Notes under the pieces: generated by a model
What the model was told of the DNA's origin: nothing
Database searches by the model: none
What the model saw: only the letters and a program-made list of their open reading frames with translations
In this document: piece after piece, positions 17,987-33,015 of the stretch
How positions within the stretch are numbered: the stretch's first letter is position 1
How the letters are laid out: each line of letters begins with the position of its first letter
Made by a program: the position numbers and the translations under genes
Assembly: GCF_002854065.1 (NCBI RefSeq)
Contig: NZ_CP024147.1
Length of the DNA stretch: 64,000 nt
Source: Escherichia coli
GTDB taxonomy: Bacteria; Pseudomonadota; Gammaproteobacteria; Enterobacterales; Enterobacteriaceae
Strand: one strand, 5' to 3'

Positions 17987-18376
17987 ATGAGACATTACAT
18001 GAAGTGGTTTGCGGCTATTGCTGTTGTGGGTGCTTTAGCAGGTTGCGCGCGTACTGCGCCAATTGATCAGGTTCACTCAACCGTCAGCGCTGGTCATACC
18101 CAGGAACAAGTGAAAAAAGCGATTCTGAAAGCTGGCGTTGAACGCAAATGGATTATGTCCGAAGCCGGACAAGGCATAATTAAAGCACGTCAACAGTCAC
18201 GCGATCATTCAGCGGAAATACGCATTAACTACACGGCATCCAGCTACGATATCAATTATGAAAATAGCCAGAACCTACAAGCGTCAGGCGGACAAATTCA
18301 TAAAAACTACAATCGCTGGGTCCGCAATCTCGACAAAGATATTCAACTGAATTTGTCAGCGGGCGCAGATTTATAA
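17987..18376 (+). CDS. Putative lipoprotein of unknown function; first ORF of the accessory insert
   Basis: 129-aa ORF with signal peptide and lipobox (VGALAGC); preceded by GGGG RBS; alternative start 12 nt downstream (MKWFAA...). Confidence 0.5.
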   Translation: MRHYMKWFAAIAVVGALAGCARTAPIDQVHSTVSAGHTQEQVKKAILKAGVERKWIMSEAGQGIIKARQQSRDHSAEIRINYTASSYDINYENSQNLQASGGQIHKNYNRWVRNLDKDIQLNLSAGADL

Positions 18377-18435
18377 TTCTTCCTAAAGTCGGGCCGTTGC
18401 GGTCCGATAATAATTTAATTCCCTCTTAACAGGTT

Positions 18436-19503
18436 GTGCCCAACATGTACGAACAGGATTCTCTTAGCGCACTGGATGCGATTACCGAAGCTCAACGCAT
18501 TGCCTTTGCCCCTATGCTTTTTCAAACAGCACTCTGCCTACGTAATGCGGGTGTACTTTCATATCTGGATCGGCAAGGCAAACATGGCGCAACGCTGGCT
18601 GATATCACCGAACATAGCCATATCAACGAATATGCTGCCAGCGTTCTGTTAGATATGGGCTTAAGCGGGCGAATTATTACCTGTAAAGAGGGAATTTATT
18701 ACCTGGCGAAAATCGGTCATTACCTCCTGCATGACACTATGACTCGCGTGAATATGGATTTCACCCAGGATGTCTGTTACCAGGGGCTCTTCTTCCTCGC
18801 CGATTCACTCAATGAAGGAAAACCTTCCGGGTTAAAAGTATTTGGCGACTGGTCGACGATATATCCGGCACTTTCGCAATTACCAGACGCCGCTCGTGAA
18901 AGCTGGTTTGCGTTTGATCATTACTATTCAGATGGCGCATTTAACGCCGTACTGCCTTATGTATTCGCCAACAACCCCACAACATTGTACGATGTAGGCG
19001 GCAATACGGGTAAGTGGGCTTTGCGTTGCTGCAAATACAATGAAAACATCGCCGTGACGTTATTAGATCTGCCACAACAAATCGTACTAGCGAAAGAAAA
19101 TATCGCGAATGCAGGTTTTTCTGATCGCATAGATTTCCATGCGGTGGATATGCTAAGCGATGCCCCATTACCGGGCGAGGCTGATATCTGGTGGATGAGC
19201 CAATTTTTAGACTGTTTTTCACCCGAACAAATAATTAGCATACTCAGCAAAATTGCCAGCGTAATGAAGCCTGGCGCAAAAGTTTGCATCATGGAGTTGT
19301 TCTGGGATGCGCAGCGGTTTGAAGCAGCATCGTTTAGCCTGAACGCGTCCTCACTTTATTTTACCTGCATGGCAAACGGTAACAGCCGTTTCTATAGTGC
19401 AGAGAAATTTTACGACTATCTGAATAAAGCAGGATTCCAGGTAGCAGAGCGCCACGATAATTTAGGCGTTGGGCATACACTTTTGATATGCCAAAAGAAA
19501 TAA
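18436..19503 (+). CDS. apeB: SAM-dependent O-methyltransferase (class I), ApeB-like
   Basis: 355-aa ORF with SAM-binding motif YDVGGNTG and LLDLP; track start appears to be GTG, ATG 9 nt downstream (MYEQDSL...). Confidence 0.75.
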   Translation: MPNMYEQDSLSALDAITEAQRIAFAPMLFQTALCLRNAGVLSYLDRQGKHGATLADITEHSHINEYAASVLLDMGLSGRIITCKEGIYYLAKIGHYLLHDTMTRVNMDFTQDVCYQGLFFLADSLNEGKPSGLKVFGDWSTIYPALSQLPDAARESWFAFDHYYSDGAFNAVLPYVFANNPTTLYDVGGNTGKWALRCCKYNENIAVTLLDLPQQIVLAKENIANAGFSDRIDFHAVDMLSDAPLPGEADIWWMSQFLDCFSPEQIISILSKIASVMKPGAKVCIMELFWDAQRFEAASFSLNASSLYFTCMANGNSRFYSAEKFYDYLNKAGFQVAERHDNLGVGHTLLICQKK

Positions 19504-19543
19504 TCGTCACTTAATAATTTTGGTTTACCGCGGGCGCGCGTTG

Positions 19544-20266
19544 ATGAAATTTACATTAAATATTACCGACTGGCAGGCACTGGCGCCTGGACTTAGCGAA
19601 GCGCAGCAATGGCAAGCATGGTCGCGCCAGCCGTGGGCGATTGACCCTGCCGCGCCGTTGGCAAAATTAAGTGAACTGCCAATGATGACCGCCCGCCGCC
19701 TCAGTTCAGGCAGCAAACTGGCTGTTGAATGCGGTCTGGCAATGCTACGCCGCCATCAGCCAGACGCCGTTTTGTATACCAGTCGTCATGGCGAACTGGA
19801 GCGCAATTACCGCATTGTTCATGCACTGGCAACCGAACAGGCGCTTTCTCCGACGGACTTCGCGCTCTCCGTACACAACTCTTCCGTGGGTAACCTGACC
19901 ATTGCGGCCAAACAGCCGATCGTTTCGTCATCGCTTTCGGCTGGTCGCGACACTTTCCAGCAAGGTTTGTGTGAAGTGCTTAGTCTGTTACAGGCGGGCT
20001 ACCAGCGCGTGTTGATGGTCGATTTTGATGGCTTTCTGCCTGAGTTCTATCATCCACAACTGCCCGCAGAAATGCCGACCTGGCCGTACGCCGTCGCGCT
20101 GGTGATTGAAGCTGGCGATGAGTGGCAATGTGGAACGCAGTCAGCCATTGCGGGTAATGAAACAACACTGCCGCAAAGCATGTTGTTTTTACAGCACTAT
20201 TTACAAAATGCGGACACATTTTCACTGCCTGGCGAGCGCGTACAGTGGCGCTGGAGCCGTGGATGA
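19544..20266 (+). CDS. apeC: Ketosynthase-like chain-length-factor protein (KS-beta without active-site Cys), ApeC-like
   Basis: ORF 19520..20266 trimmed to ATG (MKFTLNITDWQ...); KS-like N-terminal fold but SSSLSAG where KS carries the catalytic Cys. Confidence 0.65.
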   Translation: MKFTLNITDWQALAPGLSEAQQWQAWSRQPWAIDPAAPLAKLSELPMMTARRLSSGSKLAVECGLAMLRRHQPDAVLYTSRHGELERNYRIVHALATEQALSPTDFALSVHNSSVGNLTIAAKQPIVSSSLSAGRDTFQQGLCEVLSLLQAGYQRVLMVDFDGFLPEFYHPQLPAEMPTWPYAVALVIEAGDEWQCGTQSAIAGNETTLPQSMLFLQHYLQNADTFSLPGERVQWRWSRG

Positions 20267-21084
20267 GTAAGCTGCTGTCACGTCTGGAGTGGACCTGGCG
20301 ACTGGTCATGACCGGGTTATGTTTTGCCCTGTTTGGTCTCGGCGGCCTGCTGCTTTCTGTCGTGTGGTTTAACATATTGTTAGTTTTGGTGTGGGATACT
20401 TCCCGCCGCCGTCGTTTGGCGCGTCGCAGCATTGCCGCCAGTTTTCGCCTGTTTTTAACTGTCGCGAAAGGGCTTGGCGTGCTGGATTATCGTATTGATG
20501 GCGCTGAAATTTTACGTCAGGAACGCGGTTGCCTCGTCGTAGCCAATCATCCCACGCTGATCGATTACGTGCTGCTGGCGTCAGTCATGCCAGAAACTGA
20601 CTGCCTGGTGAAAAGCGCGCTGTTAAAAAATCCTTTTCTTGGCGGCGTCGTGCGGGCGGCAGATTATTTAATCAACAGCGAAGCTGAAACCCTGTTACCC
20701 CGCTGCCAACAGCGACTGGCACAGGGTGACACTATCCTGATTTTCCCCGAAGGCACGCGAACGAAGCCCGGTGAAAAAATGACGCTGCAGCGCGGGGCGG
20801 CGAATATTGCCGTGCGCTGTGCCAGCGATTTACGCATCGTGACGATCGGCTGTAGCGAGCATCTGCTGGATAAACAAAGTAAATGGTATGACGTTCCACC
20901 TGACCGGCCGTTTTTTACGGTTGCAGTCCATGGTCGGGTTGAAATCAATAAATTTTACGATGCAACTTCACAAGAACCGGCGCTGGCAGCAAGGCAGTTA
21001 AACCGGCATCTTTTGCTTCAATTACAACAAGGTTGTTTACCTCTCTCAGGAATAAATAATGCAAGCGCTTTATCTGGAAATTAA
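20263..21084 (+). CDS. apeD: Lysophospholipid/1-acylglycerol-3-phosphate acyltransferase family protein, ApeD-like
   Basis: HX4D motif (NHPTLIDY), FPEGTR motif, N-terminal TM helix; ATG overlaps upstream stop (ATGA). Confidence 0.8.
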   Translation: MSKLLSRLEWTWRLVMTGLCFALFGLGGLLLSVVWFNILLVLVWDTSRRRRLARRSIAASFRLFLTVAKGLGVLDYRIDGAEILRQERGCLVVANHPTLIDYVLLASVMPETDCLVKSALLKNPFLGGVVRAADYLINSEAETLLPRCQQRLAQGDTILIFPEGTRTKPGEKMTLQRGAANIAVRCASDLRIVTIGCSEHLLDKQSKWYDVPPDRPFFTVAVHGRVEINKFYDATSQEPALAARQLNRHLLLQLQQGCLPLSGINNASALSGN

Positions 21085-21316
21085 AAACCTCATCATCAGC
21101 ACCCTCAATCTGGACGAGTTGACGCCTGATGATATCGATACCGACGCGCCGCTGTTTGGCGACGGTTTAGGGCTGGACTCTATCGATGCCCTGGAACTGG
21201 GACTGGCAGTAAAAAATGAGTACGGCATCGTGCTCTCTGCGGAAAGCGAAGAGATGCGTCAGCACTTTTTCTCCGTCGCCACTCTGGCCTCTTTCATTGC
21301 TGCGCAACGTGCCTGA
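21059..21316 (+). CDS. apeE: Acyl carrier protein 1, ApeE-like
   Basis: 85 aa, phosphopantetheine attachment motif GLDSIDALEL. Confidence 0.85.
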   Translation: MQALYLEIKNLIISTLNLDELTPDDIDTDAPLFGDGLGLDSIDALELGLAVKNEYGIVLSAESEEMRQHFFSVATLASFIAAQRA

Positions 21317-21327
21317 GGAAAGCCATC

Positions 21328-21579
21328 ATGACAGAACAACAAACCGTCTATCAGGAAGTCTCAGCCCTGCTGGTTAAGCTGTTTGAAATCGATCCGCAGG
21401 ACATCAAACCTGAAGCGCGCCTGTACGAAGATCTGGAACTGGACAGCATCGACGCCGTTGACATGATTGTGCACCTGCAAAAGAAAACCGGTAAGAAAAT
21501 CAAGCCGGAAGAGTTTAAAGCAGTGCGTACAGTCCAGGATGTCGTCGAGGCTGTAGAACGCCTGCTACAAGAAGCCTGA
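21328..21579 (+). CDS. apeF: Acyl carrier protein 2, ApeF-like
   Basis: 83 aa, attachment motif LELDSIDAVDMI; GAGGAA RBS. Confidence 0.85.
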   Translation: MTEQQTVYQEVSALLVKLFEIDPQDIKPEARLYEDLELDSIDAVDMIVHLQKKTGKKIKPEEFKAVRTVQDVVEAVERLLQEA

Positions 21580-21583
21580 TCTG

Positions 21584-22165
21584 ATGTCGGGCATTCGCTC
21601 GCTACCGATGATTAAGCTGCTGACTGGATTATTGCTGCTCGCCTGGCCGTTTGTGATTTGGTTTGGCTTAGCGCATAACGGCCTGCACTGGCTGTTGCCG
21701 CTAATAGCGTTGCTGCTTTTGTTGCGCCTGCGCCAGACCCGTCGCCAGGCGGGGCCGCTCCAGGTCGTCACACAAATCGTCGCTGTCGTGGGCATCGCAT
21801 TATGTGTCGCCAGCGTTCTGTTGAAAACACACCAGCTACTGCTGTTTTACCCGGTAGTGGTTAACGCGGTCATGCTGGCGGTTTTTGGCGGTTCGCTGTG
21901 GTCGGCAATGCCGATAGTTGAGCGGCTGGCGCGTTTGCAGGAGCCAGATCTGCCGGAAAAGGGCATGCGCTATACCCGCCGCGTCACGCAAATCTGGTGC
22001 GGCTTTTTCATCATCAACGGTGGAATTGCCCTCTTTACCGCGCTTTATGCCGATATGTCGTTATGGACCGCCTGGAACGGCATGATTGCTTATTTGTTGA
22101 TGGGAACATTAATGGCTGGTGAATGGCTGGTGCGCCGTCAGGTGATGAAAAGAGATCGCGCATGA
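21584..22165 (+). CDS. apeG: Integral membrane protein of unknown function, ApeG-like
   Basis: 193 aa with ~5 hydrophobic helices; translationally coupled to neighbours. Confidence 0.6.
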   Translation: MSGIRSLPMIKLLTGLLLLAWPFVIWFGLAHNGLHWLLPLIALLLLLRLRQTRRQAGPLQVVTQIVAVVGIALCVASVLLKTHQLLLFYPVVVNAVMLAVFGGSLWSAMPIVERLARLQEPDLPEKGMRYTRRVTQIWCGFFIINGGIALFTALYADMSLWTAWNGMIAYLLMGTLMAGEWLVRRQVMKRDRA

Positions 22166-23523
22166 AGCAGACCTTACCGCTTGCACGCTGGCTGACTGCG
22201 CCACGCTCTGATGACACACCCATTGCGTGGCTGGACGAAAGCTTCTGGACGCTGGGCGATTTGCGTCACGATGTCGCGCAACTTATCTGCCGCTTGCAGC
22301 AACAGCCGGGTGAACGCTGGGCGCTGTGCTTTGAGAACAGCTATCTGTTTATCGTTGCCCTGCTCGCCACGCTACACGCCGGAAAAACGCCGGTGCTTCC
22401 GGGGCATAACCGTGTTATCCAGCTTAACGAGCAACGTGAACTTTTTGATGGTGTGCTTAGCGACAGCGAACTTAACTGGCAAGGTTCATTGCTGTTGGTA
22501 GCAAGTTCCCCACAAATCGCGACACAATCCTTCACCTTTGCCGCTATAGCGCCAGAGGCTTTTATCGAGCTGTTTACCTCCGGTTCCACGGGACAGCCGA
22601 AACGGGTGATTAAACCTGTTCATTTGCTGGATCGTGAAGCAGAACTGCTGGCTGAACGATTAGGCGCACGTCTGGCGGGTTGTCGTGTCGTCGGTTCCGT
22701 ATTGCCGCAGCATTTGTACGGCCTGACTTTTCGCGTTTTCCTGCCCATGGCGTTGGGATTACCGCTGCACGCCGCCATGCTCTGGTATGTCGAACAGTTT
22801 GCCGCGTTGAGTCATCAGCATCGCTATATCTTCATCAGCAGCCCGGCATTTTTGAAGCGCCTGGATACCCAGCTTTCTCCGCCACCCGTTCAGGTGCTTC
22901 TCTCTGCTGGCGGTGAGCTGCCGTGGCAGGATGTACAACACACCGCAAGCTGGCTGCGCGTCTGGCCTGATGAAATCTACGGCAGCACGGAAACCGGTGT
23001 CATCGCCTGGCGTTACCGCGAACAAGAGCAACGCCGCTGGCTACCCTTCCCTGGTATGCAGTTCCAGGCCGAAGGTGATTCTTTTCGTCTCTTTTCACCG
23101 CTGATGGCGGAAGATAACGGCCTGTTACTCGACGATCTCTTGCAGTTTAGCCAGGACGGTCAGTTCCATCTGATGGGGCGTCGTGGGCGCATCGTTAAGA
23201 TTGAAGAAAAACGTATTTCACTCCAGGAAGTAGAACAACGTCTGCTGGCGCTGGACGGTATTCGCGAGGCGGCGGCAGTTCCCGTTACGCGCGGCGGGCG
23301 TCAGAGCATAGGCGTTTTGCTGGTGCTGGATGACGAAGCTCATCTGCAATGGCAGAACGGCGGCGGGCATAGCCAGGAAATGACCTGGCGGCGTTTACTG
23401 CGCCCGACGCTGGAGCCAGTTGCTATTCCGCGTTACTGGCGCGTTATTGATGAAATGCCAGTAAACAGTATGAACAAGCGTGTCTATGCGCAATTACAGG
23501 AGTTATTTCATGAAGCCCCATGA
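22162..23523 (+). CDS. apeH: AMP-dependent synthetase/ligase (aryl/acyl adenylating enzyme), ApeH-like
   Basis: ORF 22123..23523 trimmed to ATG overlapping upstream stop (MKQTLPLARWL...); adenylation P-loop FTSGSTGQPKRV. Confidence 0.8.
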   Translation: MKQTLPLARWLTAPRSDDTPIAWLDESFWTLGDLRHDVAQLICRLQQQPGERWALCFENSYLFIVALLATLHAGKTPVLPGHNRVIQLNEQRELFDGVLSDSELNWQGSLLLVASSPQIATQSFTFAAIAPEAFIELFTSGSTGQPKRVIKPVHLLDREAELLAERLGARLAGCRVVGSVLPQHLYGLTFRVFLPMALGLPLHAAMLWYVEQFAALSHQHRYIFISSPAFLKRLDTQLSPPPVQVLLSAGGELPWQDVQHTASWLRVWPDEIYGSTETGVIAWRYREQEQRRWLPFPGMQFQAEGDSFRLFSPLMAEDNGLLLDDLLQFSQDGQFHLMGRRGRIVKIEEKRISLQEVEQRLLALDGIREAAAVPVTRGGRQSIGVLLVLDDEAHLQWQNGGGHSQEMTWRRLLRPTLEPVAIPRYWRVIDEMPVNSMNKRVYAQLQELFHEAP

Positions 23524-23863
23524 AATCGAGCGCCATCAGGCACAAACGAATCACCTTGAAATTGTTCTGCATCTCAGGGCGGATCTGTTCTGGTTTCGCG
23601 GTCATTTTGCCGTGCAACCATTACTCCCAGGAGTTGCGCAAATCGACTGGGCGATGAGCTACGCGCTCAATCTGCTCGCGCCTGGCTGGCGTTTTCACTC
23701 CATTCAGAACATAAAATTCCAGTCTCCGTTGCTGCCGGAAAACCGCGTCACGCTCGCGCTTAACTGGCAGGAAGAACGCCAGATTCTGAGCTTTAGCTAT
23801 CAGCGTCACGACGGTGACGCCCGCCACACCGCCAGTAGCGGGAAGATCCGCCTATGTCGGTAA
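23510..23863 (+). CDS. apeI: Hotdog-fold 3-hydroxyacyl-ACP dehydratase (FabA/FabZ-like), ApeI-like
   Basis: ~117 aa from MKPHEIERHQ...; hotdog-size protein in FAS-like context; start overlaps apeH end. Confidence 0.65.
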   Translation: MKPHEIERHQAQTNHLEIVLHLRADLFWFRGHFAVQPLLPGVAQIDWAMSYALNLLAPGWRFHSIQNIKFQSPLLPENRVTLALNWQEERQILSFSYQRHDGDARHTASSGKIRLCR

Positions 23864-25530
23864 ACTTTTCTCCCTGCGTGTTGATTCCCTGCTATAACCA
23901 CGGCGCGATGATGCCGGGCGTGCTGGCGCGTCTTAAGCCATTTAATCTCCCCTGTATTGTGGTGGACGACGGCAGCGATGCCGCCACGCAACAGCAACTG
24001 GATAATCTGGTTAGCGAACAGCCTGGCGTGACCTTAATTCGCTTAGCAGAAAACGCAGGTAAAGGCGCGGCAGTGATGCGTGGCTTACAGGCAGCGGCAG
24101 ACGCAGGGTTCAGCCATGCGGTGCAGGTGGATGCTGACGGTCAACATGCGATTGAAGATATCCCCAAACTGCTGGCACTCGCTGAACGACACCCTGCGGC
24201 GCTGATCTCCGGCCAGCCAATTTACGATGACTCCATCCCCCGCTCACGGCTTTACGGGCGCTGGGTCACCCACGTCTGGGTATGGATCGAAACGCTCTCC
24301 CTGCAACTGAAAGACAGCATGTGCGGCTTTCGCGTTTATCCGGTTGCGCCAACGCTGCAACTGGCAAAACACGCCACCATCGGCAAGCGGATGGATTTCG
24401 ACACTGAAGTGATGGTGCGCCTCTACTGGCAGGGAAACACCAGCTATTTCGTGCCGACCCGCGTCACCTATCCACTGGACGGGCTTTCGCATTTTGATGC
24501 CCTGAAAGATAACGTCCGCATCTCGCTCATGCACACGCGTCTGTTTTTCGGCATGTTACCGCGTATTCCTTCACTGCTGATGCGCCGCTCTTCCAGCCAC
24601 TGGGCGCGGCAGAGTGAAGTGAAAGGATTATGGGGAATGCGCCTGATGCTGCTGGTCTGGCGTCTGCTGGGAAGAACGGCGTTTAGCGCGCTGCTTTACC
24701 CGGTGGTGGGCGTCTACTGGCTCACTGCTTCTCGTGCGCGCAAAGCGTCGCAAGACTGGCTCGCCCGTGTACGACAGCATCAACCACAGGCGGCAAAACT
24801 CAACAGCTATCAGCACTTTCTACGTTTCGGTAATGCCATGCTCGACAAAATCGCCAGTTGGCGCGGCGAGCTGCAACTGGGGCGCGATGTGCTGTTTGCG
24901 CCAGGCGCAGAAGCGGCACTTAACGTCAGCGATCCGCGCGGCAAATTGCTGCTGGCCTCGCATCTTGGCGATGTGGAAGTGTGCCGGGCGCTGGCAAAAA
25001 TTCAGGGCTACAAAACCATTAACGCGCTGGTGTTTAGCGAAAACGCCCAACGCTTTAAACAGATAATGCAGGAGATGGCCCCGCAGGCCGGCATCAACCT
25101 GATGCCGGTAACGGATATCGGCCCGGAAACCGCCATCCTGCTCAAAGAGAAGCTGGATAACGGCGAATGGGTGGCGATTGTCGGTGACCGCATCGCCGTC
25201 AACCCGCAACGCGGCGGCGACTGGCGCGTCTGCTGGAGTCCGTTTATGGGCCAGCCTGCGCCCTTCCCACAGGGGCCGTTTATTCTCGCGTCTATTTTGC
25301 GCTGCCCGGTGAATCTGATTTTCGCCCTGCGCCAGCACGGCAAGCTGCATATTCACTGCGAAACCTTTGCCGACCCGCTGCTGTTGCCGCGTGGCGAACG
25401 CCAACAGGCGCTGCAAAACGCTATCGACCACTACGCCGCGCGTCTGGAACATTACGCGCTCCAGTCGCCCCTCGACTGGTTTAATTTTTTCGATTTCTGG
25501 CAACTGCCGGAAATTCAGGACAAGGAGTAA
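23854..25530 (+). CDS. apeJ: Two-domain protein: N-terminal family-2 glycosyltransferase fused to a C-terminal domain of unresolved (possibly acyltransferase-like) function, ApeJ-like
   Basis: 558 aa; GT-A signatures CYNHGAMMP, VVDDGSDA, QVDADGQH in the first ~230 aa; remainder has no motif I can assign. Confidence 0.75.
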   Translation: MSVNFSPCVLIPCYNHGAMMPGVLARLKPFNLPCIVVDDGSDAATQQQLDNLVSEQPGVTLIRLAENAGKGAAVMRGLQAAADAGFSHAVQVDADGQHAIEDIPKLLALAERHPAALISGQPIYDDSIPRSRLYGRWVTHVWVWIETLSLQLKDSMCGFRVYPVAPTLQLAKHATIGKRMDFDTEVMVRLYWQGNTSYFVPTRVTYPLDGLSHFDALKDNVRISLMHTRLFFGMLPRIPSLLMRRSSSHWARQSEVKGLWGMRLMLLVWRLLGRTAFSALLYPVVGVYWLTASRARKASQDWLARVRQHQPQAAKLNSYQHFLRFGNAMLDKIASWRGELQLGRDVLFAPGAEAALNVSDPRGKLLLASHLGDVEVCRALAKIQGYKTINALVFSENAQRFKQIMQEMAPQAGINLMPVTDIGPETAILLKEKLDNGEWVAIVGDRIAVNPQRGGDWRVCWSPFMGQPAPFPQGPFILASILRCPVNLIFALRQHGKLHIHCETFADPLLLPRGERQQALQNAIDHYAARLEHYALQSPLDWFNFFDFWQLPEIQDKE

Positions 25531-25533
25531 AGG

Positions 25534-25956
25534 GTGCTTAACGATCCCCGATTTACCGCTGAAGTCGAGCTGACCATTCCCTTTCACGACGTCGATATGA
25601 TGGGCGTGGCCTGGCACGGTAACTATTTTCGCTACTTTGAAGTGGCCCGCGAGGCGCTGCTCAACCAGTTCAATTACGGCTATCGGCAGATGAAAGAGTC
25701 CGGTTATTTGTGGCCAGTGGTCGATGCGCGGGTGAAATATCGCCACGCCCTCACCTTTGAGCAACGCATCCGCGTGCGTGCGCATATCGAAGAGTTCGAA
25801 AACCGTCTGCGGATTGGCTATCAGATTTTCGATGCCGAAACGGGCAAACGCGCCACCACCGGATACACCATTCAGGTCGCGGTCGACGAGCAAAGTCGCG
25901 AACTGTGCTTTGTCAGCCCCGATATTCTGTTTGAACGCATGGGAGTCAAACCATGA
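25534..25956 (+). CDS. apeK: 4HBT/YbgC-type hotdog acyl thioesterase, ApeK-like
   Basis: 140 aa; apparent GTG start after AAGGAG RBS; hotdog thioesterase-like N-terminus (FHDVDMMGVAWHGNYFRYFE). Confidence 0.7.
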   Translation: MLNDPRFTAEVELTIPFHDVDMMGVAWHGNYFRYFEVAREALLNQFNYGYRQMKESGYLWPVVDARVKYRHALTFEQRIRVRAHIEEFENRLRIGYQIFDAETGKRATTGYTIQVAVDEQSRELCFVSPDILFERMGVKP

Positions 25957-26558
25957 AATTTTTACCGCTACTGGCGCTGCTGATTAGCCCGTTTGTGAGC
26001 GCCCTGACCCTGGACGATCTTCAGCAACGCTTTACCGAACAATCGGTGATCCGCGCCCATTTCGATCAAACCCGGACGATTAAAGATCTGCCGCAGCCGC
26101 TGCGATCTCAGGGCCAGATGTTGATCGCCCGCGACCAGGGGCTGTTGTGGGATCAAACCTCACCGTTCCCCATGCAACTATTACTGGACGATAAACGCAT
26201 GGTGCAGGTGATCAACGGTCAGCCGCCGCAAATCATCACGGCAGAAAACAACCCGCAGATGTTTCAGTTTAACCACCTGCTGCGCGCGCTGTTCCAGGCC
26301 GATCGCAAAGTGCTGGAACAAAACTTCCGCGTCGAATTTACCGACAAAGGCGAAGGCCGCTGGACGCTGCGCCTGACCCCAACCACCACGCCGCTGGATA
26401 AAATTTTCAACACCATCGATCTCGCCGGGCAAACCTATCTGGAGAGCATTCAACTTAATGATAAACAGGGCGATCGCACCGATATTGCTCTTACCCAACA
26501 TCAACTGACGCCAGCGCAACTGACCGATGACGAACGCCAACGTTTTGCCGCCCAGTAA
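25953..26558 (+). CDS. apeL: LolA-like periplasmic lipid/lipoprotein carrier, ApeL-like
   Basis: 201 aa with signal peptide MKFLPLLALLISPFVSA; ATGA overlap with upstream gene. Confidence 0.65.
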   Translation: MKFLPLLALLISPFVSALTLDDLQQRFTEQSVIRAHFDQTRTIKDLPQPLRSQGQMLIARDQGLLWDQTSPFPMQLLLDDKRMVQVINGQPPQIITAENNPQMFQFNHLLRALFQADRKVLEQNFRVEFTDKGEGRWTLRLTPTTTPLDKIFNTIDLAGQTYLESIQLNDKQGDRTDIALTQHQLTPAQLTDDERQRFAAQ

Positions 26559-28845
26559 ACGCCCCGCGCTGTTATGGGGGCTAGTCTGCCTGGTCATGGC
26601 GGCGGCGTTGCTGATCCTGCTGCCGCAATCACGGCTGAACAGTAGCGTGCTGGCTATGTTACCCAAACAGGCGATGGGCGATATTCCCCCAGCGCTGAAT
26701 GACGGCTTTATGCAGCGTCTGGACCGCCAACTGGTGTGGCTGGTCAGCCCCGGTAAAGAGGCTAATCCCAGGGTGGCTCAGGAGTGGCTGACGCTGCTGC
26801 AAAAATCCGCTGCGCTCGGCGACGTTAAAGGGCCAATGGATGCCGCCAGCCAGCAAGCGTGGGGCGCGTTTTTCTGGCAGCACCGCAACGGCCTGATTGA
26901 CCCCGACACCCGCGCCCGCCTGCAAAACGGCGGCGAAGCGCAGGCGCAGTGGATCCTCTCCCAGCTTTATTCTGCATTCTCCGGGGTAAGCGGCAAGGAG
27001 CTGCAAAACGATCCGCTGATGTTAATGCGCGGCTCGCAGCTGGCGATGGCAAAAAATGGCCAGCGTTTGCGGCTGATGGACGGCTGGCTGGTGACGCAGG
27101 ATCCCCAGGGCAACTACTGGTATCTGCTGCACGGCGAACTGGCGGGATCGTCGTTTGATATGCAGCAAACCCACCAGCTCATCACGACCCTGAATACGCT
27201 GGAAAAGGATCTGAAAACGCGTTACCCACAGGCGCAGTTGCTCTCGCGCGGCACGGTATTTTACAGCGATTACGCCAGTCAACAGGCGAAGCAGGATATC
27301 TCAACCCTGGGCGTGGCAACGCTGCTGGGGGTGATATTACTGATTGTGGCGGTGTTCCGCTCTTTGCGCCCATTGTTGCTTTGCGTGATTTCCATCGGCA
27401 TCGGCGCGCTGGCGGGAACGGTCGCCACTTTATTGATTTTCGGTGAATTACACCTGATGACGCTGGTGATGAGCATGAGCGTTATCGGCATTTCCGCTGA
27501 CTACACGCTCTATTATCTCACCGAGCGGATGGTGCACGGCAACGACGTTTCGCCGTGGCAAAGCCTGGCGAAAGTACGCAATGCCCTGCTGCTGGCGCTG
27601 CTCACCACCGTGGCGGCATATCTGATTATGATGCTCGCCCCCTTCCCCGGCATTCGCCAGATGGCGATTTTTGCCGCCGTCGGGTTGAGCGCCTCCTGTC
27701 TGACCGTCCTGTTCTGGCATCCGTGGCTGTGCCGTGGCCTGCCGGTGCGTCCGGTTCCGGCGATGGCGCTGATGCTGCGCTGGCTGGCAGCGTGGCGGCG
27801 CAATAAAAAACTGTCGCTGGGTCTGCCCGTCGCGCTGGCGCTGTTTTCGCTGGCGGGGATGTCAATGCTGCGCGTCGATGACGATATCTCGCAGTTACAG
27901 GCGCTGCCGCAGCATATTCTGGCGCAGGAGAAAGCCATTACCGCCCTGACCGGACAAAGCGTCGATCAAAAATGGTTTGTGGTTTACGGCGATTCGCCAC
28001 AGCAAACATTGCGGCGACTGGAGAAATATACCGCCTCACTTGAGTATGCGAAAAAAGAGGGGCTTATCAGCAACTACCGCACCATTCCGCTGAACTCCCT
28101 TGCGCGGCAGGAGGAAGATTTACAACTGCTGAAAACGGCGGCCCCGACAGTAACAAAAGCGCTGCAAAATGCCGGGCTGACGGCAGTGAACCCGGATCTC
28201 AACGCCATGCCAGTGAACGTTGATGAATGGCTGGCAAGCCCTGCCAGTGAAGGCTGGCGTCTGCTGTGGCTGACGCTGGAAAACGGCGAAAGCGGCGTAC
28301 TGGTGCCGGTTGAAGGGGTTAAAAGTAGCGCGTTGATGCAGGAAATCGCCACATATTACCCTTGCGGCATTGCCTGGGTTGATCGCAAAAGCACCTTTGA
28401 TGAGTTGTTCGCGCTTTACCGTTATGTCTTAACCGGCTTGTTGCTGGTGGCGCTGGCGGTGATTGCCTGCGGCGCAGTGGCCCGTCTCGGCTGGCGCAAA
28501 GGGCTTATCAGCCTTGTACCTTCGGTGCTTTCGCTGGGTTGTGGTCTGGCGGTGCTGGCGATGAGCGGGCAGGCGGTGAATCTCTTTTCGCTGCTGGCGC
28601 TGGTGCTGGTGCTTGGCATCGGCATCAACTACACGCTGTTTTTCAGTAATCCGCGCGGCACACCATTAACTTCGCTACTGGCGATCACGCTGGCAATGCT
28701 CACCACCTTGCTGACGCTGGGAATGCTGATATTCAGCGCCACCCAGGCCATCAGCAGTTTTGGCATTGTGCTGGTGAGCGGTATTTTCACCGCCTTCCTG
28801 CTTTCGCCGCTGGCGATGCCCGATAAAAAGAGAACAAAAAAATGA
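26527..28845 (+). CDS. apeM: MMPL/RND-superfamily membrane exporter, ApeM-like
   Basis: 772 aa, two hydrophobic TM bundles separated by soluble domains; start ambiguous (ATG 26527 overlapping apeL, or in-frame start further down). Confidence 0.75.
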   Translation: MTNANVLPPSKRPALLWGLVCLVMAAALLILLPQSRLNSSVLAMLPKQAMGDIPPALNDGFMQRLDRQLVWLVSPGKEANPRVAQEWLTLLQKSAALGDVKGPMDAASQQAWGAFFWQHRNGLIDPDTRARLQNGGEAQAQWILSQLYSAFSGVSGKELQNDPLMLMRGSQLAMAKNGQRLRLMDGWLVTQDPQGNYWYLLHGELAGSSFDMQQTHQLITTLNTLEKDLKTRYPQAQLLSRGTVFYSDYASQQAKQDISTLGVATLLGVILLIVAVFRSLRPLLLCVISIGIGALAGTVATLLIFGELHLMTLVMSMSVIGISADYTLYYLTERMVHGNDVSPWQSLAKVRNALLLALLTTVAAYLIMMLAPFPGIRQMAIFAAVGLSASCLTVLFWHPWLCRGLPVRPVPAMALMLRWLAAWRRNKKLSLGLPVALALFSLAGMSMLRVDDDISQLQALPQHILAQEKAITALTGQSVDQKWFVVYGDSPQQTLRRLEKYTASLEYAKKEGLISNYRTIPLNSLARQEEDLQLLKTAAPTVTKALQNAGLTAVNPDLNAMPVNVDEWLASPASEGWRLLWLTLENGESGVLVPVEGVKSSALMQEIATYYPCGIAWVDRKSTFDELFALYRYVLTGLLLVALAVIACGAVARLGWRKGLISLVPSVLSLGCGLAVLAMSGQAVNLFSLLALVLVLGIGINYTLFFSNPRGTPLTSLLAITLAMLTTLLTLGMLIFSATQAISSFGIVLVSGIFTAFLLSPLAMPDKKRTKK

Positions 28846-29426
28846 TCAAATCCACATTCTGGCGAGCGTTCGCCCTGACCGCTACGCTTATCCTCACCGG
28901 CTGTAGCCACTCGCAACCAGAACAGGAAGGCCGCCCGCAGGCGTGGCTGCAACCTGGCACGCGCATCACGCTGCCGGCACCAGGGATTTCACCCGCAGTC
29001 AATTCGCAGCAACTGTTGACCGGCAGCTTCAACGGCAAAACCCAGTCGCTGTTAGTGATGCTTAACGCCGACGATCAGAAAATCACCCTTGCCGGGCTGT
29101 CGTCGGTCGGCATTCGCCTGTTTCTGGTGACCTACGATGCGCAAGGGCTACGCGCCGAGCAATCCATCGTCGTCCCACAGTTACCGCCCGCAAGTCAGGT
29201 ACTGGCTGACGTGATGCTCAGCCACTGGCCGATTAGCGCCTGGCAACCGCAACTTCCCGCAGGATGGACACTTCGCGACAACGGTGACAAACGCGAGCTG
29301 CGTAACGCCAGCGGCAAACTGGTCACGGAAATCACCTATCTGAATCGCAAGGGCAAACGCGTGCCAATCAGCATTGAGCAGCATGTCTTTAAATACCACA
29401 TCACCATTCAATACTTAGGTGACTGA
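28842..29426 (+). CDS. apeN: Lipoprotein of unknown function, ApeN-like
   Basis: 194 aa, signal peptide plus lipobox LTGC; ATGA overlap with apeM stop. Confidence 0.6.
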   Translation: MIKSTFWRAFALTATLILTGCSHSQPEQEGRPQAWLQPGTRITLPAPGISPAVNSQQLLTGSFNGKTQSLLVMLNADDQKITLAGLSSVGIRLFLVTYDAQGLRAEQSIVVPQLPPASQVLADVMLSHWPISAWQPQLPAGWTLRDNGDKRELRNASGKLVTEITYLNRKGKRVPISIEQHVFKYHITIQYLGD

Positions 29427-29427
29427 T

Positions 29428-30597
29428 ATGATTTATATTTCCGCCGTCGGCATGATCAACGCCCTGGGAAATAACCTTGACGAAATCGCAACCAACCTGA
29501 CTCGCGGTGTTGCTCCCGGCATGCGCCCGCGCGCAGGCTGGTTGCAGGGGCATCCGCAGGCGGTCCTGGCTGGCGTGGATGGCGAGCTTCCGCTTATCCC
29601 GGAAAAATTCGCTGCGCACCGCTCGCGCAACAATCAGATCCTGCTGGCGGCGCTGGCGCAGATCCAGCCGCAGGTTGATGACGCTATCGCGAAATATGGT
29701 CGCGAGCGCATCGCGATTGTACTTGGCACCAGCACCTCCGGCCTGCATGAAGGCGACACGCACGTTAACCTGCGCACCCACGGGCAGCCGAGCACCACAT
29801 GGCACTACGCGCAACAGGAACTCGGCGATCCGTCGCGTTTTCTCAGCCACTGGCTGGCGCTCGACGGCCCGGCCTATACCCTTTCAACCGCCTGCTCTTC
29901 CAGCGCCAGAGCGATAATCAGCGGGCGCAGGCTTATCGAAGCGGGGCTGGTCGATGCCGCCATTGTGGGTGGCGCAGACACCCTGAGCCGGATGCCGATT
30001 AACGGTTTTCACAGCCTCGAATCGCTGTCGCCAACCTTATGTCAGCCGTTTGGTCGTGACCGCGCAGGTATCACCATTGGTGAAGGGGCGGGGCTAATGC
30101 TGCTGACCCGGGAACCGCAGCCCATCGCGTTGCTGGGCGTTGGTGAATCGAGCGACGCTTACCATATTTCGGCCCCGCATCCGCAGGGCGAAGGGGCGAT
30201 CCGCGCCATTAATCAGGCACTGACCGATGCGCAGCTTACGCCAGATGACGTCGGCTATATCAACCTGCACGGCACCGCCACGCAACTCAACGACCAGATT
30301 GAATCGATGGTGCTTAACGCCCTGTTTGGCGAACGCGTACCGTGCAGCTCCACCAAACATTTGACCGGCCACACGCTGGGCGCGGCGGGCATTACCGAAG
30401 CAGCAATCAGTATGTTGATCTTACAGCGTGATTTACCGCTGCCCGCCCAAGATTTCAGCCTGTCGCCACGCGATCCCACGCTGCCACCCTGCGGCATTAT
30501 CGAAAAACCGCAGCCGCTGGCTCGTCCGGTGATCCTGTCCAATTCCTTCGCCTTTGGCGGCAATAACGCCAGCATTCTGCTCGGGAGGGTTTCGTGA
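29428..30597 (+). CDS. apeO: Beta-ketoacyl-ACP synthase (KAS I/II-like), ApeO-like
   Basis: ORF 29419..30597 trimmed to ATG after AGGTGA RBS; catalytic Cys (LSTACSSSA), His (NLHGTAT), GHTLGAAG. Confidence 0.85.
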   Translation: MIYISAVGMINALGNNLDEIATNLTRGVAPGMRPRAGWLQGHPQAVLAGVDGELPLIPEKFAAHRSRNNQILLAALAQIQPQVDDAIAKYGRERIAIVLGTSTSGLHEGDTHVNLRTHGQPSTTWHYAQQELGDPSRFLSHWLALDGPAYTLSTACSSSARAIISGRRLIEAGLVDAAIVGGADTLSRMPINGFHSLESLSPTLCQPFGRDRAGITIGEGAGLMLLTREPQPIALLGVGESSDAYHISAPHPQGEGAIRAINQALTDAQLTPDDVGYINLHGTATQLNDQIESMVLNALFGERVPCSSTKHLTGHTLGAAGITEAAISMLILQRDLPLPAQDFSLSPRDPTLPPCGIIEKPQPLARPVILSNSFAFGGNNASILLGRVS

Positions 30598-31058
30598 GCC
30601 ACTATTTATCCCCCGGCGCTTATCTGCCCCACGACGCGCCCATGTTACTGCTGGAAGACGTGGTGAGCGTCAGCGATGACAGCGCGGTGTGCCGCGTGAC
30701 GGTTTCGCCCAGTGGCGTACTGGCACCGTTTCTCGACCCGGACGGCAATCTCCCCGGCTGGTTTGCCCTTGAACTGATGGCGCAAACCGTCGGCGTCTGG
30801 TCTGGCTGGCATCGCCACCAGCAGGGCAAAAACAGTATTGAGTTAGGGATGATACTGGGCGCGCGTGAATTGCTTTGCGCCGCTGGCATTCTGCCCGCAG
30901 GCCAGACGCTGACCATTACCGTCAAACTGCTGATGCAGGACGATCGCTTCGGCAGTTTTGAGTGCAGCATCAACGACGGCGAGGCGACGGGCCGCATTAA
31001 CACCTTCCAGCCGACCGCGGAAGAACTTACCACCCTGTTTCAACAAGGAGCGTCCTGA
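30594..31058 (+). CDS. apeP: Hotdog-fold dehydratase, ApeP-like
   Basis: 154 aa; apparent GTG start after GGGAGGG RBS, overlapping apeO stop. Confidence 0.65.
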   Translation: MSHYLSPGAYLPHDAPMLLLEDVVSVSDDSAVCRVTVSPSGVLAPFLDPDGNLPGWFALELMAQTVGVWSGWHRHQQGKNSIELGMILGARELLCAAGILPAGQTLTITVKLLMQDDRFGSFECSINDGEATGRINTFQPTAEELTTLFQQGAS

Positions 31059-31789
31059 TGAGTCGTTCAGTTCTGGTTACTGGTGCCAGCAAAGGCATTG
31101 GTCGCGCCATCGCCTGCCAACTGGCGGCAGACGGCTTTAACATTGGCGTTCACTATCACCGTGACGCCACAGGCGCTCAGGAAACGCTGAATGCCATTGT
31201 CGCCAACGGGGGTAACGGGCGTTTGCTCAGTTTCGACGTCGCAAACCGCGAACAGTGTCGGGAAGTGCTGGAGCATGAGATCGCGCAACACGGTGCCTGG
31301 TACGGCGTGGTCAGTAACGCCGGGATCGCCCGCGATGCCGCTTTTCCGGCTTTAAGCGATGACGACTGGGATGCGGTGATCCACACCAACCTCGACAGTT
31401 TCTACAACGTCATTCAGCCGTGCATTATGCCAATGATCGGCGCGCGCCAGGGTGGGCGCATCATCACGCTGTCCTCGGTTTCCGGCGTAATGGGCAATCG
31501 CGGCCAGGTGAATTACAGCGCAGCCAAAGCCGGAATTATCGGCGCAACTAAAGCGCTGGCTATCGAACTCGCGAAGCGCAAAATCACCGTCAACTGCATC
31601 GCGCCGGGGCTTATTGATACCGGGATGATCGAAATGGAAGAGAGCGCTCTGAAAGAGGCAATGTCGATGATCCCCATGAAACGTATGGGCCAGGCGGAAG
31701 AAGTTGCCGGGCTTGCCAGTTATTTAATGTCTGATATTGCGGGTTACGTCACCCGCCAGGTTATTTCCATCAACGGAGGGATGTTATGA
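31058..31789 (+). CDS. apeQ: SDR-family 3-oxoacyl-ACP reductase (FabG-like), ApeQ-like
   Basis: 243 aa; TGASKGIGRAI cofactor motif, catalytic YSAAKAG. Confidence 0.9.
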   Translation: MSRSVLVTGASKGIGRAIACQLAADGFNIGVHYHRDATGAQETLNAIVANGGNGRLLSFDVANREQCREVLEHEIAQHGAWYGVVSNAGIARDAAFPALSDDDWDAVIHTNLDSFYNVIQPCIMPMIGARQGGRIITLSSVSGVMGNRGQVNYSAAKAGIIGATKALAIELAKRKITVNCIAPGLIDTGMIEMEESALKEAMSMIPMKRMGQAEEVAGLASYLMSDIAGYVTRQVISINGGML

Positions 31790-33015
31790 CACGTCGCGTA
31801 GTGATTACAGGAATGGGCGGCGTGACTGCCTTTGGTGAAAACTGGCAGGACGTTTCTGCACGCTTACTGGCGTATGAAAATGCGGTGCGCAAAATGCCGG
31901 AGTGGCAGGTCTACGATGGCCTGCACACCCTGCTTGGCGCGCCTGTTGATGATTTCACGCTACCGGAGCACTATACCCGCAAGCGTATCCGTGCGATGGG
32001 CCGCGTATCGCAAATGTCGACCCGTGCCAGCGAGCTGGCGTTAGAGCAGGCAGGGTTGATTGGCGATCCGATATTAACCAGCGGCGAAACGGGCATTGCG
32101 TACGGTTCATCGACCGGCAGTACCGGCCCGGTAAGCGAGTTCGCCACCATGCTGACGGAAAAGCACACCAATAACATCACTGGCACCACCTATGTGCAGA
32201 TGATGCCGCACACCACCGCCGTTAATACTGGCCTCTTTTTCGGCCTGCGCGGGCGGGTGATCCCAACCTCCAGCGCCTGTACTTCCGGCAGCCAGGCAAT
32301 CGGTTATGCGTGGGAAGCCATTCGCCACGGTTATCAAACGGTGATGGTTGCTGGTGGTGCCGAAGAGTTATGTCCTTCAGAAGCAGCGGTATTTGATACG
32401 CTTTTCGCCACCAGCCAGCACAATGATGCGCCGAAAACCACACCTTCACCGTTCGATGAAAACCGCGACGGGCTGGTGATTGGTGAAGGCGCAGGTACGC
32501 TCATTCTCGAAGAACTGGAGCACGCCAAAGCGCGCGGCGCGACCATTTACGGTGAAATCGTCGGCTTTGCGACTAACTGCGACGCGGCACATATTACCCA
32601 GCCGCAGCGCGAAACCATGCAGTATTGTATGGAGCAATCGCTGAAAATCGCCGGGTTAAGCGCACAAGATATCGGCTATATTTCAGCGCATGGTACGGCG
32701 ACCGATCGCGGTGATATGGCAGAAAGTCTGGCGACAGCAACCATTTACGGTGATAATGTGCCGCTCTCCTCGCTGAAAAGTTATTTTGGTCATACGCTTG
32801 GTGCCTGTGGCGCGCTCGAAGCCTGGATGAGTCTGCAAATGATGCGCGAAGGTTGGTTTGCGCCTACGCTAAACCTGAATAAACCAGACCCGAATTGTGG
32901 CGCGCTGGATTACATCATGCATGAAGCCCGCAAGGTTGATTGTGAGTTTTTGCAGAGTAACAACTTTGCCTTTGGCGGCATTAATACATCCATCATCATT
33001 AAACGTTGGCCCTGA
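31786..33015 (+). CDS. apeR: Beta-ketoacyl-ACP synthase II-like, ApeR-like
   Basis: 409 aa; MTRRVVITGMGG N-terminus, catalytic Cys (SSACTSGS), His (SAHGTAT), GHTLGACG. Confidence 0.9.
   Translation: MTRRVVITGMGGVTAFGENWQDVSARLLAYENAVRKMPEWQVYDGLHTLLGAPVDDFTLPEHYTRKRIRAMGRVSQMSTRASELALEQAGLIGDPILTSGETGIAYGSSTGSTGPVSEFATMLTEKHTNNITGTTYVQMMPHTTAVNTGLFFGLRGRVIPTSSACTSGSQAIGYAWEAIRHGYQTVMVAGGAEELCPSEAAVFDTLFATSQHNDAPKTTPSPFDENRDGLVIGEGAGTLILEELEHAKARGATIYGEIVGFATNCDAAHITQPQRETMQYCMEQSLKIAGLSAQDIGYISAHGTATDRGDMAESLATATIYGDNVPLSSLKSYFGHTLGACGALEAWMSLQMMREGWFAPTLNLNKPDPNCGALDYIMHEARKVDCEFLQSNNFAFGGINTSIIIKRWP

Follow-up and report, generated by a model that had tools for sequence, protein, structure and literature searches.

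Non-ATG starts and stop/start overlaps in the aryl polyene operon of Escherichia coli

We have analysed a stretch of 64,000 nucleotides of the Escherichia coli chromosome (the window), which carries an aryl polyene (APE) island, apeA-apeR, at 17999-33015 between yhhT and acpT-nikA. With a probability of about 0.9, this is the known E. coli APE operon, its genes start where they had first been proposed to start and where RefSeq/PGAP places them, and its architecture is an ordinary one in which neighbouring genes would be translationally coupled. The GTG starts and the stop/start overlaps of the operon are real, but they are not enriched over the background of the window.

The gene content of the island identifies it as an aryl polyene biosynthetic cluster that appears to be of the known apeA-apeR type. 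The genes follow one another closely in a single orientation, the E. coli CUWW06 record matches the island at 100%, and the gene order is that of the published apeA-R table (PMC8253772). Both the RefSeq annotation of this identical record and a Pfam scan (ApeI-like PF22818 at 1e-39; ApeP-like PF22817 at 9e-41) agree with Table 1 of that paper.

17999-33015, one strand: apeA-apeR, in the order lipoprotein, methyltransferase, chain-length factor (CLF), LPLAT, two ACPs, COG4648 protein, adenylating enzyme, dehydratase (DH), GT2, thioesterase, LolA-like, MMPL/RND, DUF3261, KS, DH, KR, KS

The ApeI-like/ApeP-like dehydratase pair and the KS:CLF pair are homologous to characterised Xenorhabdus doucetiae proteins, matching the structures 6qsr_A (1e-38), 6qsr_B (2e-47), 6qsp_B (1.5e-92) and 6qsp_A (3e-175). 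Among 5426 complete E. coli genomes, 825 (~15%) carry the island, and a blastn search of the same genomes for distant copies found no second, diverged APE island. Since identity over apeK-apeN is 96.8% or higher in each of the 825 copies, within-species paralogues cannot serve as independent orthologues; start-site conservation was assessed over 80 orthologous loci. The window departs from the reference record past position 61934, and an apparent TAT start of a helicase gene in the background table was rejected as a coordinate artefact of this divergence.

Two genes of the operon, those of the thioesterase and of the second dehydratase, start with GTG behind a strong Shine-Dalgarno (SD) sequence, as a preliminary description of the window had proposed. 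They are located as follows.

25534-25956, + strand: apeK, 4HBT/YbgC-type thioesterase of 140 amino acids, GTG start
25522-25536, + strand: apeJ/apeK junction, with SD AAGGAG, TAA stop, 3-nt spacer AGG and the apeK GTG
30594-31058, + strand: apeP, ApeP-type hot-dog dehydratase of 154 amino acids, GTG start
30583-30597, + strand: apeO/apeP junction, with SD GGGAGGG, 4-nt spacer and GTGA overlap

The apeK GTG (25534-25536) lies 6 nt after AAGGAG (25522-25527), which constitutes the last two sense codons of apeJ, and it is separated from the apeJ TAA (25528-25530) by the triplet AGG. The overlap with the upstream stop that had been claimed for both GTGs is thus present at apeP and absent at apeK, where a gap of 3 nt is found. 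The duplex of the apeK SD amounts to -8.0 kcal/mol, in the top 1% of the 841 GTG trinucleotides of the window, and that of apeP to -10.8 kcal/mol, in the top 0.1%; neither can therefore be ascribed to chance. The apeK GTG is the first possible start past an in-frame stop one codon upstream, the TAA of apeJ, and the next ATG is found at +21 codons. The motif formed by AAGGAG, TAA, two or three nucleotides and GTG is nearly invariant in 80 species, and in 80 orthologous loci the apeK start codon is GTG in 74, ATG in five and TTG in one, a non-start codon never being found; the homologous position holds a start codon in 79 of 79 species. The third base of this codon never changes and the variation is confined to GTG, ATG and TTG, while the internal valine codon at +24 varies freely as GTN. 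The orthologues of ApeK are uniformly 140 amino acids long and begin at the same alignment column, with residues 1-21 conserved, and a start at the ATG 25597 would cost the protein Asp21, the residue aligned with the conserved aspartate of the 4HBT/YbgC thioesterases. In Enterobacterales GTG is the ancestral apeK start; it gave way to ATG on three or more occasions and to TTG on one, with the gene retained. An antisense ORF of 357 amino acids (24820-25893) was dismissed as a candidate overlapping gene, since it matches no Pfam family and is interrupted by stops in 75 of 80 species.

The apeP GTG (30594-30596) follows GGGAGGG (30583-30589) by 4 nt and overlaps the apeO stop TGA (30595-30597) as GTGA; it is the first possible start past an in-frame stop nine codons upstream, the next ATG being at +16 codons. 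At this position other species have ATG in 59 of 60 ungapped projections, and four E. coli alleles all carry GTG. The GTG is an Escherichia-specific transition from ATG and leaves the amino acid encoded in the overlapping apeO frame unchanged (TCA to TCG). Residues 7-152 of the protein align with positions 7-154 of the Pfam ApeP-like profile, the FabA-like domain begins at residue 11, and the alignment with 6qsr_B begins at residue 3. Initiation at the ATG 30642 would remove the PH motif (His13), the opening of the FabA-like domain.

The preliminary description had further proposed that the six-frame ORFs of apeC, apeD, apeH, apeI and apeO should be trimmed to internal ATGs overlapping the preceding stop; four of these five genes lie outside the interval 25534-30597 to which it had assigned them. 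The starts concerned, together with that of apeM, are given below.

19544-19546, + strand: apeC ATG, chain-length factor; six-frame ORF from TTG 19520; 40-nt gap after the apeB stop
20263-20266, + strand: apeC/apeD, ATGA overlap; six-frame alternative GTG 20245
22162-22165, + strand: apeG/apeH, ATGA overlap; six-frame alternative ATG 22123
23510-23523, + strand: apeH/apeI, 14-nt overlap with the apeI ATG inside the apeH end; six-frame alternative GTG 23480
29417-29430, + strand: apeN/apeO, SD AGGTGA (29417-29422), apeN TGA (29424-29426) and apeO ATG 29428, with a 1-nt gap (TGAtATG)
26527-26558, + strand: apeL/apeM, 32-nt overlap with the apeM ATG inside the apeL end, without SD

The orthologues support all five ATGs (19544, 20263, 22162, 23510 and 29428) and indeed every start that had been named, with 96-100% of species having a start codon at the corresponding site and the upstream six-frame alternatives lacking such conservation. 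The overlap with the preceding stop holds for apeD and apeH (both ATGA) and for apeI (14 nt), and fails for apeC and apeO, which are separated from it by 40 nt and 1 nt, respectively. At apeC the ATG is found in 76 of 76 loci and the TTG at -8 is a reachable start in two of them; residue 1 of the crystallised X. doucetiae ApeC (6qsp_B) aligns at ATG 19544. The apeD position holds a start codon in 55 of 57 loci and that of apeH in 66 of 66, where the alternative 22123 is a start in 38 and lies beyond an in-frame stop in 27. For apeI the start is ATG or TTG in 77 of 77 loci, compared with 42-49 of 77 for the alternative 23480, and ATG 23510 is aligned both with the first position of the Pfam ApeI-like profile and with the first residue of 6qsr_A. 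The apeO ATG is found in 75 of 75 loci. In SD strength the annotated start beats its alternative at every gene except apeM, which has no recognisable SD upstream of its start. This start is nevertheless ATG in 67 and TTG in three of 70 loci, and the apeL codon that provides the AT of the apeM ATG is always NAT and never the synonymous NAC, which indicates that the apeM start is held in place by a synonymous-site constraint in apeL. An NCBIfam scan of the maximal ORFs said little about the N-termini for the most part, with no matches for ApeC, ApeI, ApeN and ApeP and one full-length match, NF006618, to ApeO.

It had also been predicted that automated annotation of the island would carry wrong N-termini. 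This does not apply to RefSeq/PGAP, where every start is correct in four of four records (CUWW06, NCTC10444, GN06156 and O157:H7 2-6-2), PGAP calls being partly informed by homology and thus in part dependent on the same evidence as the orthologue comparison; the prediction is borne out by the records of other pipelines. Wrong-start forms were counted by exact-sequence look-up of public records (GenBank, ENA, JGI and Logan). ApeK truncated to 119 amino acids (ATG 25597) occurs on 79 contigs (e.g. BEC48917.1 and EMW00628.1) and ApeP truncated to 138 (ATG 30642) on 27 (e.g. EFJ87580.1). Extended forms were found for ApeC (248 amino acids, 38 contigs), ApeH (466, one contig), ApeI (127, e.g. CAR15092.1 of UMN026 and CAQ90934.1 of E. 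fergusonii) and ApeD (279), the last on three contigs for the allele of the window and on at least 1000 for a sister allele. The correct 140-residue ApeK and 154-residue ApeP are each present on at least 1000 contigs and hence the wrong records of these two proteins are a minority. The shortened forms lack Asp21 and His13, respectively, which are catalytic by homology, and are therefore predicted to be probably inactive. For cloning or expression of the E. coli proteins the GTG-initiated forms of 140 and 154 amino acids should be used. The current RefSeq calls for the island are reliable, and caution is needed with annotations that are older or were provided by submitters, among them the 279-residue ApeD and the 127-residue ApeI.

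Eleven of the 17 junctions between apeA and apeR overlap, five more are separated by 1-11 nt and the remaining one is the gap before apeC. The overlaps comprise six ATGA, one GTGA and one TGATG, and longer ones of 10, 14, 26 and 32 nt, and most SD sequences sit within the last codons of the preceding gene. Further junctions are the following.

23854-23863, + strand: apeI/apeJ, 10-nt overlap with the apeJ ATG inside the apeI end; ATG in 66 of 77 loci
25953-25956, + strand: apeK/apeL, ATGA overlap of the apeK stop and the apeL start
28842-28845, + strand: apeM/apeN, ATGA overlap of the apeM stop and the apeN start
31056-31060, + strand: apeP/apeQ, TGATG, 1-nt overlap of the apeP stop and the apeQ start

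In the rest of the window nine of 12 tight junctions overlap and four of 45 genes start with GTG, compared with 11 of 17 and two of 17 in the ape operon. Internal promoter- or terminator-like signals in the operon showed no excess over shuffles. The spacing of the junctions is conserved across species, with -14 at apeI in 69 of 79 orthologous operons, -10 at apeJ in 67 of 77, +3 at apeK in 66 of 80, -4 at apeL in 63 of 68, -32 at apeM in 62 of 73, +1 at apeO in 72 of 75, -4 at apeD in 50 of 75 and -4 at apeR in 70 of 72. Such overlapping junctions are normal bacterial operon packing and co-translation, already known, and imply no new biology; overlapping ORFs and a polycistronic message have been described for the APE cluster by Johnston et al. 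2021 (PMC8253772).

A different view of the two GTGs would be that they are selected settings of expression, the weak start of apeK behind a consensus SD fixing a low output of thioesterase compared with the adjacent genes and Escherichia having recently down-tuned ApeP; if true, start-codon choice would be a control of stoichiometry in a type II PKS operon. The retention of GTG at apeK in 74 of 80 species, the nearly invariant AAGGAG and the fixation of the apeP GTG in four E. coli alleles speak for this possibility. By major-allele frequency, the first base of the apeK GTG stood above 20 of 21 and then, in a larger set, above 97.7% of 310 fourfold-degenerate sites in ape genes. Since a C at this base would abolish the start, however, G should properly be compared with A alone, and on this comparison selection was rejected: of 104 neutral sites with G as the major base, 14% show an equal or greater bias towards G, which places the retention at apeK within neutral expectation. 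The replacements by ATG and TTG without loss of the gene, and a GTG frequency equal to that of the background, also oppose it. We thus consider selected settings unlikely in general, and the particular version in which the apeK GTG is kept as a thioesterase attenuator and the apeP transition is an adaptive re-tuning of the ApeI:ApeP ratio rather more doubtful.

Use or co-use in E. coli of alternative starts, giving a longer ApeD (279 amino acids) or ApeO (392 amino acids) or the shorter ApeK and ApeP, is improbable. The apeD codon at -6 is a start in 40 of 57 species and ATG in two E. coli lineages (O157:H7 and GN06156), and several pipelines call the 279-residue form, the one found on at least 1000 contigs; however, it is CTG or another non-start codon in 17 of 57, and its conservation is accounted for by the overlapping Gln-Trp codons of apeC. 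A 279-residue isoform of ApeD may exist in E. coli. In the case of apeO, the GTG 29419 at -3 is a start codon in 61 of 75 species and NF006618 aligns from residue 2 of the GTG-extended protein, probably reflecting old annotations in its seed, but this GTG falls inside the SD AGGTGA, and no separate SD precedes it (-1.2 kcal/mol with the full 16S tail, against -8.1 for ATG 29428). The conservation of the annotated ATGs, and the conserved residues that shortened ApeK and ApeP would lose, are further arguments against such forms. A fusion of ApeJ and ApeK by read-through of the TAA deserves almost no credence: the two genes share a frame (25534 - 23854 is divisible by 3), a single sense codon, AGG, stands between the stop and the GTG, and apeK is preceded in frame by the stop of apeJ itself, yet the spacing is 2 nt in 10 of 80 species, which breaks the frame, and different in four more. 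It is on this absence of frame preservation in 14 of 80 species that the fusion is rejected; the consensus SD and the start-class codon conserved at the junction also count against it, and TAA is the most efficient stop of E. coli.

Retaining the ordinary operon with the starts given above, we propose that ribosomes ending one cistron would re-initiate at, or pass on to, the next start. Such coupling would tie together the synthesis of partner subunits, ApeO with ApeC and ApeI with ApeP, and the apeM start, having no SD, would be served by ribosomes translating apeL. Classical coupled junctions, exemplified by trpE-trpD and trpB-trpA, show ATGA, GTGA or TGATG overlaps and an SD that lies within the coding region of the preceding gene, as does the ape operon, which differs from them in unusually long overlaps (26 and 32 nt), that of 32 nt (apeL/apeM) being without SD. 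In the same window, nikB and nikC likewise overlap by GTGA, nikC starting with GTG.

Among related clusters, the X. doucetiae proteins of the structures 6QSP (ApeO:ApeC) and 6QSR (ApeI:ApeP), attributed in PMC8253772 to Grammbitter et al. 2019, are close homologues (E-values 1e-38 to 3e-175), and the expressed N-termini of Xenorhabdus coincide with the E. coli ATG 19544 (ApeC) and ATG 23510 (ApeI) and, to about one residue, with GTG 30594 (ApeP). Xenorhabdus differs in starting apeP with ATG, and apeK with ATG behind a weaker SD, AAGGAA, where E. coli has GTG and AAGGAG. The APEEc cluster apeA-apeR of CFT073 (c1204-c1186; Cimermancic 2014, PMC8253772), which produces a cell-bound yellow aryl polyene pigment (PMC8253772), has the same 18-gene order, predicted functions and single orientation as the island of the window. 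The latter differs from it in adjoining acpT-nikA, which is the arrangement of the O157:H7 O-island: O-island 138 is the same island directly upstream of the phosphopantetheinyl transferase gene acpT (De Lay & Cronan 2006, as cited in PMC8253772). At 98% identity, the O157:H7 copy shares its annotated starts with the window, the sole difference relevant to start sites being the apeD codon at -6, which is ATG in O157:H7 and GTG in the window.

The starts and junctions of the aryl polyene (APE) island were found to be essentially as the preliminary description, made from the sequence alone, had put them, with the exception of three supposed overlaps with upstream stops, at apeK, apeC and apeO.

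17999-33015, plus strand, APE island apeA-apeR, inserted between yhhT and acpT
19544, plus strand, apeC ATG, 40 nt 3' of apeB
20263, plus strand, apeD ATG, ATGA overlap with the preceding stop
22162, plus strand, apeH ATG, ATGA overlap with the preceding stop
23510, plus strand, apeI ATG, 14-nt overlap with the preceding stop
25522-25527, plus strand, AAGGAG, followed by the apeJ TAA (25528-25530) and a 3-nt spacer (direct reading)
25534, plus strand, apeK GTG, first start codon after the in-frame stop (direct reading)
26527, plus strand, apeM ATG, 32 nt inside apeL (overlap 26527-26558), without a Shine-Dalgarno sequence (SD)
29428, plus strand, apeO ATG, 1 nt 3' of the apeN TGA
30583-30589, plus strand, GGGAGGG, SD 5' of the apeP GTG
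30594-30596, plus strand, apeP GTG, first start codon after the in-frame stop

The thioesterase gene apeK and the second dehydratase gene apeP had both been described as starting with GTG behind a strong SD and overlapping the upstream stop. For apeP direct reading bears out every element, the start overlapping the apeO stop as GTGA, while for apeK the GTG and its SD hold but the start abuts the apeJ TAA across the spacer. The SD duplexes amount to -10.8 kcal/mol for apeP and -8.0 kcal/mol for apeK, within the top 0.1% and 1%, respectively, of the 841 GTG trinucleotides of the whole window. Starting apeP at ATG 30642 would remove the PH motif opening the FabA-like domain, which begins at residue 11; the ApeP-like profile reaches residue 7 of the GTG-initiated protein, and 6qsr_B its residue 3. 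Starting apeK at ATG 25597 would remove Asp21, aligned to the conserved Asp of 4HBT/YbgC thioesterases, which is catalytic in that family. The ApeK orthologues all have 140 aa, with residues 1-21 conserved.

Conservation was analysed in 80 orthologous loci, each from a different species, spanning Citrobacter to Xenorhabdus and Hafnia, with 10-kb flanks and an ApeK identity of 76-93%, onto each of which the E. coli starts were projected by tblastn. Alignments favouring other sites would have spoken against the proposed starts; they support them, the alternatives being less conserved.

Loci in which the homologous codon is a start codon (alternatives in codons upstream of the annotated start)
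apeC: annotated 76/76; -8 only 2/76
apeD: annotated 55/57; -6 only 40/57
apeH: annotated 66/66; -13 only 38/66
apeI: annotated 77/77; -10 only 42/77, -8 only 49/77
apeK: annotated 79/79
apeM: annotated 70/70
apeO: annotated 75/75; -3 only 61/75
apeP: annotated 59/60

The six-frame ORFs of apeC, apeD, apeH, apeI and apeO each begin 5' of an ATG to which they were to be trimmed, and all five ATGs agree with the orthologues; the predicted overlap with the preceding stop exists in apeD, apeH and apeI but not in apeC and apeO. ATG 19544 aligns with residue 1 of ApeC (6qsp_B), and ATG 23510 with both position 1 of the Pfam ApeI-like model and residue 1 of the crystallised X. doucetiae ApeI (6qsr_A). 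Conservation of an upstream alternative is accounted for by the overlapping preceding gene or by the SD: in apeD, codon -6 spans the Gln-Trp codons of apeC, and the apeO -3 GTG sits within the SD AGGTGA, which pairs with UCACCU of the 16S tail and scores -8.1 kcal/mol for the ATG versus -1.2 for the GTG. The apeD -6 codon (20245-20247; 1446-1448 in the compared loci L083/L084) is GTG in the window and ATG in O157:H7 and GN06156. The apeG start (21584-21586 and orthologous loci) is ATG in 29 species, E. coli included, and GTG in 22.

The two GTG codons differ in their distribution. That of apeP is an Escherichia-lineage transition, since all other Enterobacterales examined have ATG at the homologous ATGA overlap or one codon off, and in Kluyvera georgiana an identical gggagggtttc is followed by ATG; the change is silent in the apeO frame (TCA to TCG), and GTG is fixed among the E. 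coli alleles compared, four in number and including O157:H7. The apeK start is GTG in 74, ATG in 5 and TTG in 1 of the 80 loci, its third base constant and the start class never left, unlike the Val codon +24, which varies freely as GTN. AAGGAG-TAA-N2-3-GTG is near-invariant among these loci, and the sequence directly 5' of it has diverged. Selection rather than descent might retain the GTG, and conservation of its first base (0.92) indeed exceeds that of 97.7% of 310 fourfold sites; however, in the fair comparison, G versus A, 14% of the G-major neutral sites show an equal bias, so the fourfold-site tests give no good evidence for selection. Around this junction, apeJ and apeK (23854-25956) share a reading frame with TAA and one codon between them; a read-through fusion is unlikely, the spacing not preserving the frame in 14 of 80 species. 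A 357-aa antisense ORF across it (24820-25893, minus strand) is spurious, lacking a Pfam match and carrying stops in 75/80 orthologous loci.

The apeM start is ATG in 67 and TTG in 3 of 70 species, mostly preceded by an in-frame stop one codon 5', and the -32 geometry is kept in 62/73 loci. The apeL codon providing its 'AT' is GAT (52), CAT (14) or AAT (1), and the synonymous GAC, CAC or AAC was never found in the 70 species. NAT always and NAC never, across three amino acids, is thus a clear dual-coding constraint, in which the apeM start codon holds a site synonymous in apeL.

Wrong N-termini had been forecast for automated annotation of the island. This is partly supported. It fails for the main reference annotation, since all four RefSeq/PGAP records inspected carry exactly these starts; the warning is valid only for records outside RefSeq, where an exact-sequence look-up in about 15 billion proteins recovered mis-called forms.

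Mis-called protein forms
ApeK: 119 aa, truncated; 79 contigs
ApeP: 138 aa, truncated; 27 contigs
ApeC: 248 aa, extended; 38 contigs
ApeD: 279 aa, extended; 3 contigs with this allele and at least 1000 with a sister allele
ApeH: 466 aa, extended; 1 contig
ApeI: 127 aa, extended; found in several genomes, among them UMN026 and E. fergusonii ATCC 35469

Correctly started ApeK and ApeP each occur on at least 1000 contigs. Given the abundance of the 279-aa form, gene callers disagree more about apeD than about any other start. Clusters at 90% protein identity mix unrelated neighbours (ApeK with LolA-like ApeL, methyltransferase ApeB with ApeC, ApeG with ApeH), presumably because fused or mis-called ORFs spanning the overlapping junctions link them.

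In the order and functions of its genes the island agrees with Table 1 of Johnston et al. 2021 (PMC8253772), where apeA-R are c1204-c1186, which confirms the gene names used. In that table c1195 is missing between apeI (c1196) and apeJ (c1194), a gap suggesting that the original annotation of CFT073 called an additional ORF where apeI and apeJ overlap. AcpT is the phosphopantetheinyl transferase of the O157:H7 island copy (De Lay and Cronan 2006, as cited in PMC8253772). One flank of the window runs from livHK, rpoH, ftsYEX and zntA through yhhT, the other from acpT and nikABCDER up to gorA. The apeK-apeN segment is carried by 825 of 5426 complete E. coli genomes, every copy at 96.8% identity or more, and the reference record CUWW06 is 100% identical to a 16.8-kb query around apeK-apeP. 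The window is collinear with CUWW06, with few mismatches, to 61934 and then diverges (61934-64000). The break falls within a DEAD/DEAH helicase gene and near an IS2 copy whose annotation starts at about 63282, an indication of strain-specific rearrangement at this end of the window. Elsewhere lie a hicA/hicB type II toxin-antitoxin pair with a 4-nt overlap between nikR and yhhJ (39158-39789, minus strand), a low-GC stretch (45151-48624; 0.35-0.41 versus about 0.53 elsewhere) with two paralogous DUF4049 genes, yhiJ and its neighbour, and, in the reference record, two overlapping 17-codon 'hypothetical protein' CDSs between uspA and dtpB (54605-54689, minus strand).

Beyond the observed start positions, SDs and junction geometry, conserved across species, we propose that translation is coupled along a single message; this would keep production of the partner proteins ApeO/ApeC and ApeI/ApeP, and of the export module ApeL/M/N, coordinated. 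Ribosomes already on apeL would translate apeM, for which an SD-less start within the upstream gene would then be expected. Promoter-like and terminator-like matches within the operon show no excess over the shuffled expectation. Within such a coupled arrangement, a GTG start offset by a strong SD is a routine variation.

Nothing here is unusual, and it has been described before: Johnston et al. 2021 (PMC8253772) reported overlap among several ORFs and inferred a polycistronic transcript. Eleven of the 17 operon junctions overlap (by 1, 4, 10, 14, 26 or 32 nt) and 5 of the remaining 6 are spaced by 1-11 nt, and of 12 tightly spaced junctions in the rest of the window 9 overlap as well. GTG accounts for 2/17 starts inside the operon versus 4/45 annotated starts elsewhere in the window, and nikC, in the adjoining operon, has a GTGA overlap like that of apeP.
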